DNA from: Flavobacterium sp.
GTDB lineage: Bacteria > Bacteroidota > Bacteroidia > Flavobacteriales > Flavobacteriaceae
DNA: 64,000 nucleotides
NCBI RefSeq assembly: GCF_028689845.1
Contig: NZ_JAQVCH010000014.1
Span: 1,307-65,306, forward strand
Direction: 5' to 3'
The position numbers were made by a program, and so were the translations under genes. The notes under the pieces were generated by a model. It was not told where the DNA came from. It did no database searches and was given only the letters and a program-made list of their open reading frames with translations. Position 1 is the first letter of the stretch; every line of letters starts with the position of its first letter. Positions 8,123 through 11,995 of this stretch are shown here, piece after piece.

Positions 8123-11100
8123 ATGAAAAAACTATTTATTGCTTTGGTGTTTTTTTTATGCGGTGTTTCAACCATTTTTGCTTCAAATTACAGCGATTGA
8201 AGCTTAGATACAAGTTTTACTCCCTGAGGATGAGCCAACAGTTTTATTTACTCAATAGATGAAACAAGTGATGAAAAAATAATCATAGCAGGAGCATTTA
8301 CAAGTTATAATGGCGTATCTAGAAATCGTATCGCTCGTTTAAATGTTAATGGAACATTGGATACCACATTTAATCCGCTTTTATGACCTAACAATACTGT
8401 TTTTTCAGTAACAAATTTACCAGACAATAAGATAATTATAGCCGGAAGTTTTACAAGTTATAACGGTGTTAGTAGTAATCGTATTGCTCGCTTGAATCAA
8501 GATGGTACGCTTGATACTACTTTTGATATCGGTATATGAGCTAATAATACTATTAATACTTTAGAGGTTTTACCAGATGGTAAAATAATTATAGCTGGAA
8601 GTTTTACAAGTTACAATGGCGTACCCAGAAATCGTATCGCTCGTTTAAATCAAGATGGTACACTTGATACTACTTTTGATATCGGTTTGTGAGCTAATAA
8701 TCCGATGAATCCACTAAATACTGCTATCTTTTCAATAGCTGTTATGTCAGACGGGAAAATTTTAATCGCATGAAGTTTTACAAGTTACAATGGAGAAGCA
8801 AAAAACCGTATTGCTCGTTTAAATCCTGACGGCTCAATGGATACCACTTTTAATACGGGTATATGACCTAATAATGATATTACCTCTATTGCTTTGACTT
8901 CAGAAGGGAAGATAATTATAGCAGGATATTTTTTGAATTATGATGGACAATCAAGAAATCGTATAGCTCGTTTAAATCAAGATGGCTCACTTGATTTGAC
9001 ATTTAATGTAGGTGCTTGAGTGGATAATATTATTTTTCCGATAGTTGTTTGACCCGATGATAAGGTAATTATTTGATGACGTTTTATTAACTATAACGGT
9101 GTGACAAAAAATCGTATCGCTCGTTTAAATCAAGATGGTACACTCGATACTACTTTTATATCAGGAGTAGGAACTAATAATGAAATTAGATCTATTGCAT
9201 TATTTTCAAACGGAACAATTATTTTAGGTTGAAATTTTACCTCCTATAATGGAGTGAGTCGCACACGTGTGGCACGTCTTTGATATAGCACATCAATTTC
9301 AATAACGGCACCAACCAAATTATCCAATACATCCATAACAGATACAGCTATTACCGTAACAGGGACATCAAGTATTTATGCCACAGGAGTAAGTATTGAC
9401 TTATCTTCGACAGCGAGTGCCAGCAATCTAAATTGTACCCAAACCAGTGGGACTCAAGTGGATTGTACCATTAGTATAGATAGTAGTGGAACGCTAGTAA
9501 TTAGAGCAATAAATGCCAACGGAGCAAGCATTACCCAAAGCGAATCAAACTATGTAATAGATACAATTCCACCAAGTGTTCCTAATTTAATGGTAGATAT
9601 TCAAACGCCTTATTCGATTAATTCGCCACTGGTAGAATTTAATTCTACCGATAATATCGCTATTGATTATTGTTTATTAAACTATTTTGAGGATGACAAC
9701 GTGGTGGGCACTACAAGTGGAGCACTCACGAGTATAAATCCTGCTGTAAGTCCACTTATTGTTGCTCTTGACCCAGACCAGATTCTCCATACCATTACCG
9801 TGAGATGTTTTGATACCGCTGGTAATTTTGCCCAAAACAGTATTACCTTTCCACCCATTGTTGCTTTTAATGCTCCAACCCAAATAAGTAATACTCCCAT
9901 AACTGATGCTACTGTAACCATTACGAGCCCCAATGGGAATGATATTGACTCGATTGTTTTGACCTCCAATAGTAGTGGAGCATTTCTAGGAGCATGTAAT
10001 CCAATCACAGGTGTCTTTGGGCAATACCTTTCACCTGTTACATGTAGCCTTGAAGGAATTACCCAAAGCATGACCATTCAAATCGATGCCAGAGATGTTC
10101 TCACTAATGCAGTTGGGCAGAATTCGATGTCTTTTATAATTGATACGGTAAGTCCAAGCATTTCTATTACAGCCCCTACACTTGTAAGTCATACCGGAAT
10201 TTCAAATACAACTATTCGTGTAACGGATGATGTATTGATTTATGCCACGGGAGTACAATTATCGTGAGCATCTACGGCTCTAATTTCAAATTTTGTTTGT
10301 ATACAAACAAATTCTACTACGGTGGATTGTACTTTACAAATAGATGATGATGGAATAATAATCATTGAATGACAAGATGCAGCTTGAAATATGATTACAC
10401 AATCGCAAAGTGGCTATATTGTAGACACAGTTTATCCAGTAATTACACTACTTAATGATGTAAATCCGGTATTAAATTCCGGAGATACGATTACCGTGAA
10501 TGTAAGTGATGATATTCAAATTGATGAGTTAAGTTTGTTGTATGGATTCAGCCCAGATGCTCTGTGTGATGTGTCAGATGATTATTTATATCCTTATCAA
10601 TCAGGTATTTGAATTTACATTGATGAAGACGCAAATAATGGGCAATATCTTTGTTTCCAAGCCAAAGACCACGTGGGAAATACTACCTATCTTGGTACAA
10701 GTCAACCACTTTTATTAGACGTTGTTGGACCAAGTATTGTTTCCTTAAGCGGTTGAAATTACACCCAAGAGGTTCATTTACCTTATGAAGAGTATGGATA
10801 TACTGTGAGCGATAATTATCGAACAGGGAATGATATTGTTGTCCTTGTAACAGGAGCTGTTAATACTTCGGTTTTGGGAGAATATATTTTGTATTATACT
10901 CCAATAGACGCTTTGGGAAATGTATGAAATACGGCAACAAGAACAATAACAATTGTAGATACCACAGCTCCAACAATTGCTTTAAACGGAGCAAACTCCT
11001 ATTTGGTTGCTTACGGAAAAGTGTTTGATGATCCTTCAATAAGTTGTAGTGATAACTATTGGTCAGGTACTGATTTGGTTGTTACCATTTCGGGATATAA

Positions 11101-11995
11101 TTTAATTAACACAACAGAACCATGAAACTATACAGTTACATATACATGTTTGGACGCTTCATCTAATTCATCAACTATAGAGAGAACAGTTGTTGTTGAC
11201 AAGCTTAGGTTTGCGTGAGGATGAGGCTGAAGTTCTTTAGAGGTTGATAATTGTCCTATGGGGGATTATTCAAGTAGTTATTATGATAATTCGTGTGGAG
11301 TTGAGCCTGAGCAGTCCACATGAGCAGTTGAAGAACCTATTGAATTTGATTTGGCTGATATCTATAATCCATCGATTCCAGAGGGGTACTGTTTCGCTAG
11401 AAAATCGAACGTTGGCATAATTGACTCGGCAAAGCTAAAGACTACATTAGAGTTTAAAAAAGCACTTTCGTTCTTATACAACCATGAGATGACCATGTTT
11501 AACAAGGTAGATGAATTTAAACCGTATTCAAATCTAACGAGAGAGCAAGCATCAAAAATATTCTCAAACTTTGCTATCAATGTATTGTGTAGAAAACCCG
11601 ACACATCATTAAGAATAACTTACAGCGATGTTGAATATGCAGATGCCACTTTAAAGCCATACATCAAAAAGGCATATCAGCTTGGGCTTATGAAGTGATC
11701 AGAGGATGGAAAATTTAGACCTTTTGATACCATTACCAAAGCAGAATTTAATGCGGTATTAATTCGTATGATACTAAAGGCTTATTTACCGGAGGATGAT
11801 ACGCAATGGTATAAAGAGTATAATTCTGTTTCTACGCAACTTGAAATTATAAAATATGGAGCAGGCGAAGCACCGGTAGTAAGAAACGATTGAAGTATCA
11901 TGTTATTCAGAGCTTACAAGAACCAAGTGTTTTCATTACAAAATATCGATTACGAATCCTTTGTATTAAAAACCCGTGAGGAGTTTGTAAATTAA
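8123..11995 (+). CDS. Secreted surface protein interrupted by 27 in-frame TGA codons; intact only with TGA=Gly and a pseudogene under table 11. Architecture: signal peptide, ~7 delta-60-like repeats, Ig-like/DUF5011-like modules, Gly linker, 2 SLH-like C-terminal modules
   Basis: ATG at 8123 ([20 protein letters not shown]) and TAA at 11993. One frame (position mod 3 = 2) joins track ORFs 9458-10267, 10391-10612 and 11351-11698. The only in-frame stops are TGA, at 8198, 8225, 8231, 8384, 8537, 8690, 8771, 8864, 9017, 9050, 9074, 9077, 9230, 9281, 10265, 10370, 10385, 10610, 10754, 10925, 11123, 11216, 11222, 11228, 11321, 11696 and 11891. There are no TAA/TAG codons and no frameshifts. Confidence 0.85.
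8186..9283 (+). repeat. About 7 tandem coding repeats of ~150-174 bp (delta-60-like: [33 protein letters not shown])
   Basis: The DNA block aatcgtatcgctcgtttaaatcaagatggtaca recurs near-identically around 8331, 8634 and 9111, with diverged copies around 8478, 8808, 8958 and 9264. Confidence 0.85.

Follow-up and report, generated by a model that had tools for sequence, protein, structure and literature searches.

A surface-protein gene that reads TGA as glycine in a standard-code Flavobacterium: a probable horizontal transfer across a code boundary

How can a gene that is readable only when TGA is a sense codon lie in a genome that uses TGA as a stop? This paradox, raised by a preliminary description of the locus, concerns a single gene in a 64-kb window, the whole stretch of Flavobacterium DNA that was analysed, and is resolved below as a probable horizontal transfer between organisms with different genetic codes. 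The reading frame at 8123-11995 on the + strand comprises 1290 sense codons, from an ATG at 8123 to a TAA at 11993-11995, with 27 in-frame TGA codons (21 per 1000 codons), and the closest in-frame TAA or TAG 5′ of the start codon is at 8093. No TAA or TAG upstream of the terminal TAA and no frameshift were found across 8123-11995. The recount matches the coordinates, the codon number and the 27 TGA codons first proposed, and re-inspection for overlooked in-frame TAA/TAG codons or indels revealed neither. Translation with table 11 yielded just three pieces of at least 70 aa (9458-10267, 10391-10612 and 11351-11698), reproducing the standard-code fragments reported before. Annotation at this locus thus calls for caution: table-11 pipelines give nothing or three fragments at 8123-11995, and code-switching gene callers put tryptophan where the residue is glycine. 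The gene is organised as follows.

8123..11995, + strand: full-length gene of a surface protein, which can be read through only if TGA is taken as sense (frame, TGA count, domains)
8123..8182, + strand: Sec-type signal peptide of 20 aa (called by eye on the sequence)
8186..9283, + strand: delta-60/DUF5122 array with a 153-nt period, about seven beta-propeller blades and 14 TGA codons (Pfam/TIGRFAM matches, DNA period)
8198..8200, + strand: first in-frame TGA, codon 26, the predicted stop of translation in a standard-code host (also present in contig L001)
9284..10264, + strand: Ig-like stalk segment with 17 GGN glycine codons and no TGA, GC 39%, compared with 33-35% elsewhere in the gene (codon and GC counts)
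10976..11197, + strand: top-scoring Bact_surface_Ig-like module (PF16403, formerly DUF5011), with a second copy immediately upstream (Pfam)
11213..11233, + strand: A-G-G-G-G-G-S linker in which TGA codes for three of the five glycines (sequence, alignment)
11324..11992, + strand: conserved C-terminal cell-wall-anchor module containing a Pfam SLH match at 11621-11749, with relatives from TGA-sense genomes (Pfam, homologue search)
12011..12055, + strand: terminator-like hairpin and U run right after the stop codon (dG -18.8 kcal/mol, z -4.8)

The delta-60 (DUF5122), DUF5011 (PF16403) and SLH modules named in the preliminary description were all recovered by profile searches. The head is built of repeats of some 51 aa in tandem, which matched PF17164 in seven stretches (341.9 bits) and TIGR02608 above threshold (201.1 bits, cut-off 76.5), PF16403 was found in two stretches, and SLH (PF00395) in one, at aa 1167-1209 (40.3 bits for a cut-off of 20.8). 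Of the three tandem modules that make up an SLH wall-binding unit, Pfam defines only this one; the adjoining sequence is SLH-like by eye, and no solved structure showed a sequence match. The T9SS sorting domain (Por_Secre_tail) was absent by Pfam under all three translations of the TGA codons (G, X and W). Because the protein lacks this domain, while a neighbouring host surface protein, the M1 peptidase encoded at 34435-36387, carries one, its design does not appear to be native to Flavobacterium.

Analysis of the alignment columns occupied by TGA revealed that the codon reads as glycine (code 25) and not as tryptophan (code 4). Over 20 usable columns, glycine was the sole residue with positive log-odds (+24.5 bits), alanine reaching -23.3, tryptophan -74.9 and cysteine -109.6. 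Among 120 standard-code delta-60 homologues, glycine was the commonest residue (49-98%) in 12 of the 14 N-terminal TGA columns, and tryptophan accounted for at most 4%. Pfam bit scores, obtained with TGA translated as G, X or W, were 341.9, 313.9 and 311.7 for DUF5122, 70.6, 65.7 and 64.4 for PF16403, and 40.3, 35.2 and 31.8 for SLH, so that the W variant scored below X in all three families. Codon-aware pairwise alignment with the closest homologues placed 98 homologue TGA columns opposite 37 GGN codons, 11 TGA codons and one tryptophan of the target; the same glycine columns alternate between TGA and GGN in the target and these homologues. The earlier claim that TGA sits at glycine is borne out by these results, with two exceptions, aa 310 (glutamine in homologues) and aa 750 (alanine or valine), and the profile columns hit by TGA are glycine columns almost throughout rather than variable or non-glycine ones. 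Tryptophan itself, as previously noted, is encoded by TGG, which occurs in this gene at 11060 and 11807 only.

For these comparisons, phmmer domain alignments and codon-aware pairwise alignments were used; a global MAFFT alignment of 23 homologues was too noisy beyond the common stalk because the N-terminal heads of the homologues differ. Whole-sequence phmmer with 21 variants (TGA as each amino acid or X) gave higher scores with glycine for 34 of 59 homologues, more than with any other variant, but no rise in the mean, such scores being unstable for these long repeat proteins. A selenoprotein gene, with TGA as selenocysteine, was considered and rejected on the number of TGA codons (27), the rank of cysteine as the worst residue and the lack of any SECIS element at the Rfam gathering threshold. 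Recoding of UGA to glycine has been described (PMC4032931; PMC10746230).

The rest of the window is ordinary standard-code Flavobacterium, in agreement with the first view of a Flavobacteriia-like genome that uses TGA as a stop. Its RadA protein is 96-97% identical to those of Flavobacterium lacus, F. azooxidireducens and F. orientale. Not one in-frame TGA was counted in 17,525 host codons, and the 47 host genes end in TAA (35), TAG (6) or TGA (6). An ORF survey of the 64-kb window found no other real gene with in-frame TGA, the remaining TGA-containing ORFs being shadow frames over real genes or having their TGA at or past the gene end. RadA is encoded 45 kb away from the 8123-11995 gene. The surroundings of the gene are marked by four features.

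3561..5102, + strand: large serine recombinase of the enclosing island (annotation)
7169..8026, + strand: left neighbour, SBF-family transporter with no in-frame TGA and TGA as its stop codon (annotation, codon count)
12574..13917, + strand: right neighbour, GmrSD/NsnA-like HNH nuclease in standard code (annotation)
32870..32944, - strand: tRNA-Asn where the low-GC accessory island (1-32.8 kb) meets the core genes (tRNA/Rfam scan)

With its serine recombinase and defence genes, the island is rare and has a strain-specific defence/mobile character; in a set of 15 billion sequences, the proteins it encodes occur as singletons. Around the gene, no target-site duplication, inverted repeats, att site or flanking direct repeats were found, nor was a second copy of the tRNA-Asn end, and the flanks of the gene showed no similarity to the contigs of its relatives. 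No suppressor tRNA was detected in the window, in the upstream contig or in any fetched locus, tRNA-Asn being the sole tRNA of the window, and the stretches fetched from the contigs of the relatives contained no tRNA-Gly with anticodon UCA. Shine-Dalgarno usage, mostly lacking in host and donor-like contigs alike, does not tell them apart.

A search with the full-length protein was dominated by Bacteroidota delta-60 proteins, which cover 28% of the query, and a rerun with aa 388-1290 was informative on origin. Outside the repeat array, all close relatives of the gene come from low-GC TGA-sense genomes, and no Bacteroidota relatives of the C-terminal 900 aa were found. A scan of 185,579 species genomes retrieved no more than four bacterial relatives, all of them TGA-sense genes. 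The best relative, P0121, is 53% identical over 893 aa; P0121, P0122 and P0123 contain 52, 80 and 52 in-frame TGA codons, respectively, and lie on contigs of 31-32% GC. Housekeeping genes on the relatives' contigs L004 and L005 carry 17-28 TGA per 1000 codons and none of 42 ends in TGA; the SHMT gene of L004 scored highest with TGA as glycine (440.9, then 416.8 with X and 403.9 with W). Twelve of the 28 nearest anchor-module representatives carry W at the conserved glycine motif, and five are truncated precisely there. The genome of one relative is labelled by its depositor as 'uncultured Candidatus Peribacteria bacterium', the sole taxonomic label, which is not Gracilibacteria/Absconditabacteria. 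Scans of genomes, metagenomes and IMG/VR gave distant relatives only and no near-identical donor copy, and there were no matches in known phages and plasmids.

Other origins of the locus were weighed against this evidence. A piece of a co-occurring code-25 bacterium could have been misjoined into the Flavobacterium contig during assembly or binning: the way in which contigs are numbered in the supporting runs points to metagenomes, and the Logan contigs break within the repeat array, at 8226 and 9115. Such a chimera is very unlikely, however, since it would take two erroneous joins separated by 3.9 kb, both well inside a 66-kb contig, and both junctions recur at 100% identity in the Logan assemblies of two different runs, SRR15237803 and SRR22315505. 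Contig L001 runs from the SBF gene into the initial 104 nt of the target, TGA 8198 included, contigs L002 and L003 join the last 2.9 kb of the target to the downstream standard-code genes, and the three contigs, from two runs, are 100% identical across the gene ends; the gene is embedded in host DNA. The contigs retrieved span 16 of the 27 TGAs, all recurring at 100% identity, and the 11 TGAs at 8225-9077 are outside their coverage. Inactivation in place of a native Flavobacterium gene, by G-to-T damage or ordinary pseudogene decay, would in turn agree with the 45-54% identity between the delta-60 head and numerous Bacteroidota T9SS proteins and with the single G-to-T change that separates GGA from TGA. 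The same change would turn 40 GAA/GAG codons of the gene into TAA/TAG, but none of the 40 has been converted (P ~3e-10 at the rate required for GGA to TGA), and the TGA-rich frame therefore results from neither chance nor decay. Compared with a decaying pseudogene, the stops are all of the TGA type and almost only at glycine columns, frameshifts are absent and the length is full relative to P0121; moreover, the C-terminal 900 aa have no Bacteroidota relatives and no T9SS domain. The unconverted GAA/GAG codons, the glycine-column TGAs and the intact frame effectively refute inactivation in place, including G-to-T hypermutation, which we regard as extremely improbable.

Stop-codon-recoded prophages are known in standard-code bacteria (PMC10746230) and the region is a mobile island, so a late gene of such a prophage or phage remnant was also envisaged. 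It would be a highly improbable source: the recoded gene is single, with no phage structural or lysis genes or suppressor tRNA nearby, its TGA reads as glycine and not tryptophan, its homologues lie amid cellular housekeeping genes (Mur ligase, SHMT, sigma factors, LigA), and 50,697 phage genomes gave no match and IMG/VR one weak match. The gene could instead be kept functional, either by decoding of UGA as glycine in this Flavobacterium under some condition, through a suppressor tRNA of the host, the island or an epibiont, or by shuttling of the gene or island between a code-25 epibiont and its Flavobacterium host, with selection in the epibiont. The intact 1290-codon frame, the signal peptide, the complete C-terminus matching P0121, the terminator-like hairpin of its own and the location in a mobile island that encodes a serine recombinase are all consistent with a functional gene, and phages are predicted to cross between code-25 CPR and standard-code bacteria (PMC10746230). 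Nevertheless, the window and the upstream contig lack a suppressor tRNA, and suppression would give read-through in the six of 47 host genes that end in TGA; four of these six are in the left half of the window, which holds the island, and in a code-25 cell some would extend by up to about 50 codons. The protein also lacks the T9SS signal typical of Flavobacterium surface proteins. A gene kept functional in this way seems distinctly unlikely, and we also consider it unlikely that the DNA shuttles between a code-25 epibiont or predator and its Flavobacterium host, or is decoded by a UGA-reading tRNA, with selection on TGA as glycine keeping the 1290 codons.

In our interpretation, a code-25 gene was very probably transferred horizontally, and recently, from an ultra-small CPR bacterium of the Gracilibacteria/Absconditabacteria type into Flavobacterium, where it would be an untranslatable passenger. 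The donor would be a CPR bacterium with code 25, from the Gracilibacteria/Absconditabacteria part, in which the gene presumably encoded a secreted, wall-anchored surface protein with a delta-60 beta-propeller head, an Ig-like stalk, a glycine linker and an SLH-like anchor. The gene would then have landed in the strain-specific defence/mobile island of a standard-code Flavobacterium. Its status as a passenger is proposed because the ribosomes of this host should stop at codon 26, which would leave the gene untranslatable and presumably without expression. As the best match is only 53% identical, the donor lineage is deduced from the code and the gene family. As no near-identical donor copy was retrieved, the direction and recency of the transfer rest on the code and the intact ORF; the arrival is probably recent because the gene, read in the code of the donor, has stayed perfectly intact, and a neutral-decay simulation lost the frame at a median of 22 substitutions, the 95th percentile being 92 substitutions, or 2.4% divergence. 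Counted against the transfer reading were the TGA-free segment of 981 nt (9284..10264; P = 0.003), the lack of integration scars around the gene, the dissimilarity of its flanks to the relatives' contigs, the Peribacteria label of one relative and the 11 TGAs outside the coverage of the retrieved contigs. An intact frame of 1290 codons could also reflect selection still acting somewhere.

To our knowledge, no host has been established for most Gracilibacteria and Absconditabacteria. ORFs broken only by TGA at glycine columns in standard-code genomes could be a tracer that reveals contact organisms, and this logic nominates a Flavobacterium as a candidate partner of a code-25 bacterium. Under the transfer reading, DNA of TGA-recoded CPR bacteria does enter free-living Bacteroidota, and the locus would be a natural instance of a code difference acting as a firewall, with a complete gene that would be halted at codon 26. 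If shuttling or decoding were true, the locus would be the physical record of a living partnership between a Gracilibacteria-type bacterium and Flavobacterium, with gene traffic across the code boundary. Horizontal transfer and pseudogenes are both commonplace, but a whole code-25 cellular gene in a standard-code chromosome is not, and no published case was found in the literature searched.

Comparison with known proteins places the target beside the surface proteins of TGA-recoded CPR bacteria (P0121, on an ENA scaffold; P0122, on a 397-kb contig; P0123, in GCA_964458335.1), with which it has in common the Ig-like stalk, PF16403, the poly-glycine linker and the C-terminal anchor up to the last residues, the anchor of P0121 being 62% identical. 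It differs from them by its delta-60 head, where theirs consist of FG-GAP repeats, by its lower TGA density (21 versus 39-60 per 1000 codons), and by its location among standard-code Flavobacterium genes, whereas theirs are surrounded by TGA-containing housekeeping genes. P0134, from a standard-code CPR bacterium (delta-60, Big_13 and PG_binding_1), has the same arrangement of propeller head, Ig stalk and wall-binding C-terminus and is 47% identical over aa 34-773 of the target, but it uses the standard code, with a PG_binding_1 anchor and no TGA. The Bacteroidota delta-60 proteins have an N-terminal propeller 45-54% identical to that of the target, a similarity restricted to about 28% of its length; they contain no in-frame TGA and end in the Por_Secre_tail that the target lacks. 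As in the genetic code 25 of SR1 and Gracilibacteria, TGA is frequent as glycine beside GGN in the target, tryptophan is TGG and the gene ends in TAA. Unlike in code-25 organisms, recoding here is confined to one gene of a genome in which TGA elsewhere means stop; it thus reflects where the gene came from and not the resident organism. Shared sequence has served to infer links between Gracilibacteria and neighbouring bacteria (Sieber et al. 2019, PMC6851277; Liu et al. 2023, PMC10746230), and, as with the target, shared surface-protein sequence or phages hint in these cases at a physical association between code-25 and standard-code bacteria. What is shared there is a short TGA-free repeat or TGA-free phages, whereas the target is a whole, TGA-laden cellular gene in the chromosome of the neighbour.

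The surface-protein gene at 8123-11995 (+), translated over its whole frame, reaches its terminal TAA after 1290 sense codons; 27 TGA codons are its sole interruptions, with no earlier in-frame TAA or TAG and no frameshift. At this locus table 11 yields just three fragments with a length of 70 aa or more. Both the frame broken by TGA alone and the fragmented standard-code picture, as claimed in the preliminary description, were thus confirmed, as was the use of TGG for tryptophan in the same gene (two sites only, 11060 and 11807).

In-frame TGA codons of the surface-protein gene (+), from translation
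First half: 8198, 8225, 8231, 8384, 8537, 8690, 8771, 8864, 9017, 9050, 9074, 9077, 9230, 9281
Second half: 10265, 10370, 10385, 10610, 10754, 10925, 11123, 11216, 11222, 11228, 11321, 11696, 11891

The domains proposed for the product also hold: Pfam detected seven DUF5122/delta-60 stretches, two copies of PF16403 (formerly DUF5011) and a single SLH module over threshold, and TIGR02608 matched with 201 bits. The delta-60 array gives the DNA a periodicity of 153 nt, and 3′ of the stop codon lies a strong hairpin followed by a run of U.

To the TGA codons the preliminary description had assigned glycine sites, which was borne out. With the TGAs set to G, X or W, glycine scored highest and tryptophan lowest in all three Pfam families (341.9/313.9/311.7 bits for DUF5122, 70.6/65.7/64.4 for PF16403 and 40.3/35.2/31.8 for SLH). 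In phmmer alignments with 120 standard-code delta-60 proteins, Gly is the commonest residue (49-98%) in 12 of the 14 N-terminal TGA columns and Trp reaches at most 4%, the exceptions being aa 310 (Gln in homologues) and aa 387 (a domain edge). Log-odds summed across the 20 TGA columns with sufficient aligned standard-code residues were positive for glycine only (+24.5 bits; Ala -23.3, Ser -35.4, Trp -74.9, Cys -109.6). Whole-sequence phmmer scores of 21 variants, a cruder test, were unstable for such repeat proteins. A codon-aware comparison of 98 TGA columns of homologues found GGN in the target at 37, TGA at 11 and Trp at 1, TGA and GGN interchanging at identical columns. The stretch 9284-10264 (981 nt, aa 388-714) carries 17 GGN glycines and no TGA (hypergeometric P = 0.003), with a GC content of 39% versus 33-35% in the remainder of the gene, and its counterpart contains 10-14 TGA in each of the three closest homologues. 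This may be the trace of an older recombination within the family, making the gene a mosaic, or may be due to chance.

The surrounding genome reads TGA differently. RadA (56101-57462, -) shares 96-97% identity with its counterparts in Flavobacterium lacus, F. azooxidireducens and F. orientale. The 47 other genes of the window contain no in-frame TGA in 17,525 codons and stop at TAA (35), TAG (6) or TGA (6), and the TGA-terminated ones, such as two LytTR response regulators and the SBF transporter, stop at the usual ends of their families. The window is therefore ordinary standard-code Flavobacterium, in line with the host first described as Flavobacteriia-like with TGA as a stop, and the surface-protein gene is its sole real gene with a frame that depends on a sense TGA. 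Surface proteins of Flavobacterium rely on a C-terminal T9SS domain; Pfam found none in the target and one in a nearby host peptidase.

Little about the gene's origin can be learned from the delta-60 head by itself, which matches Bacteroidota proteins in their thousands. For the other 900 residues relatives are scarce; P0121, P0122 and P0123, surface proteins from metagenome genomes, match best, and P0121 is 53% identical across 893 aa, up to the last residues. Their genes contain 52-80 in-frame TGA each, on contigs of 31-32% GC, among housekeeping genes (Mur ligase, SHMT, sigma factors and DNA ligase, for example) that carry 17-28 TGA per 1000 codons and never end with TGA (0/42). SHMT on one of these contigs scored best with TGA read as Gly (440.9 bits, against 416.8 for X and 403.9 for Trp). 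These genomes are code-25, despite the Trp written by gene callers. A scan of one genome per species (185,579 species) retrieved only four bacterial relatives, all with in-frame TGA in the homologue and its neighbours, and no Bacteroidota genome.

One relative's genome is labelled by its depositor 'uncultured Candidatus Peribacteria bacterium' (contigs L007/L005, CAYWIJ010000004.1). With TGA at 89 of 5,151 flanking codons and at no gene end, it clearly treats TGA as a sense codon. Since described Peribacteria use the standard code, the label, or the code assignment of that clade, may need review. Gene callers wrote Trp for TGA in P0121-P0123, and the Logan gene call on L002 (2-2881, window 9116-11995) reads through the TGAs to give one 959-residue product; code-25 proteins in big collections are thus systematically mistranslated, with W in place of G.

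An exhaustive search of 1.84 billion cluster representatives with 124 TGA-free residues from the C-terminal anchor gave 24 matches at E ≤ 1e-30. Among the closest 28 relatives (median Trp content 2.25%), 12 carry W where the motif AYQL-G-LMK-G has its conserved Gly residues, and five end exactly at this motif, the result to be expected if a table-11 caller ran into a TGA. The module (11324-11992, about 215 aa) recurs at 51-65% identity in proteins P0304-P0331, whose public gene calls often give W for Gly or end at GLMK. As it is attached to varied heads (DUF285-like repeats, LRR, FG-GAP, delta-60), it looks like a wall-anchor cassette common to the surface proteins of a TGA-recoded lineage. 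For Gracilibacteria, genes for S-layer-domain proteins and for large extracellular proteins have been reported (PMC6851277).

The gene lies in a low-GC accessory island (1-32.8 kb).

Features of the island
3561-5102, large serine recombinase
12574-13917 (+), GmrSD/NsnA-like nuclease
14276-14793 (-), ParE-toxin and antitoxin pair (L002 gene calls), in the AT-rich gap that separates the GmrSD gene from the CARF operon
15092-22156, operon with PRTase-CE, ORC/CDC6-like and CARF6 proteins
27559-30462, type IIG restriction-modification enzyme, Eco57I/MmeI-like, 967 aa
32870-32944, tRNA-Asn, end of the island
Also in the island: an HTH protein; GIY-YIG and NUMOD4 nuclease-like genes

Beyond the tRNA lie core genes (RseP, M1 peptidase, fumarate hydratase, SerRS, RadA). 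The genes at 15092-22156, encoding SIS/HAD-like, PRTase-CE (PADLOC PRTase_III-A), ORC/CDC6-like ATPase, CARF6-family (374 bits) and PfkB-like kinase proteins, look like a single operon with no CRISPR array in view, possibly a system for defence or signalling built around CARF. Within 27559-32555, a small ORF comes after the type IIG enzyme, and then a NUMOD4-motif protein adjoining the tRNA-Asn gene. A cyclodipeptide synthase gene lies immediately upstream of the window in L001. RadA has many close relatives, whereas a search of 15 billion sequences at 90% identity gave none for the island proteins, among them the recombinase and both neighbours of the surface-protein gene, the SBF transporter and the GmrSD nuclease. 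Neither repeats flanking the gene nor an att site, around it or at the tRNA-Asn end, were found, the flanks of the gene showed no similarity to the relatives' contigs, and no known phage or plasmid matched.

Taken as a whole, these results support the reading that the gene was, most probably, recently transferred from a code-25 CPR bacterium into the Flavobacterium island, where it is intact but untranslatable. A false joining of the gene into a Flavobacterium contig is unlikely, because two false joins would have to recur in separate assemblies: Logan contigs from two runs, 100% identical to the window, span the left junction (L001, SRR15237803, base 1-8226, including TGA 8198) and the right one (L002, SRR22315505, 9115-15779; L003, SRR15237803, 10845-17362). 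They confirm 16 of the 27 TGAs, the other 11 (8225-9077, repeat array) lying outside the contigs retrieved. Damage or decay in place is excluded, as conversion to TAA/TAG is seen at none of the 40 GAA/GAG codons (P about 3e-10) and the frame is unshifted. The host sequence covered spans 64 kb; that the gene is maintained rather than dead, with a UGA-decoding tRNA encoded elsewhere in the genome, has a small probability.

Under transfer, the perfect frame argues for a recent arrival, since a simple neutral simulation places the first in-frame TAA/TAG after a median of 22 substitutions (95th percentile 92, or 2.4% divergence), and loses the frame earlier with indels allowed. The code, rather than phylogeny, points to the donor clade, the nearest sampled relative being only 53% identical. 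In the donor, the signal peptide would export the protein, the C-terminal anchor would fix it on the wall, and the propeller head would be displayed on an Ig-like stalk; it is plausibly an adhesin of a cell living attached to others. In Flavobacterium, release factor 2 is predicted to end translation at codon 26, leaving the signal peptide alone. The DNA may have been taken up from a CPR cell, either lysed or attached, or carried in by an element entering both cell types; phages predicted to interact with code-25 CPR and standard-code bacteria have been described (PMC10746230).

The gene could help to trace the contacts that recoded ultra-small bacteria make with their neighbours. We found no report of gene transfer across a genetic-code boundary of this kind in the literature searched. 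Horizontal transfer and pseudogene formation are both known processes, here probably at work across such a boundary.
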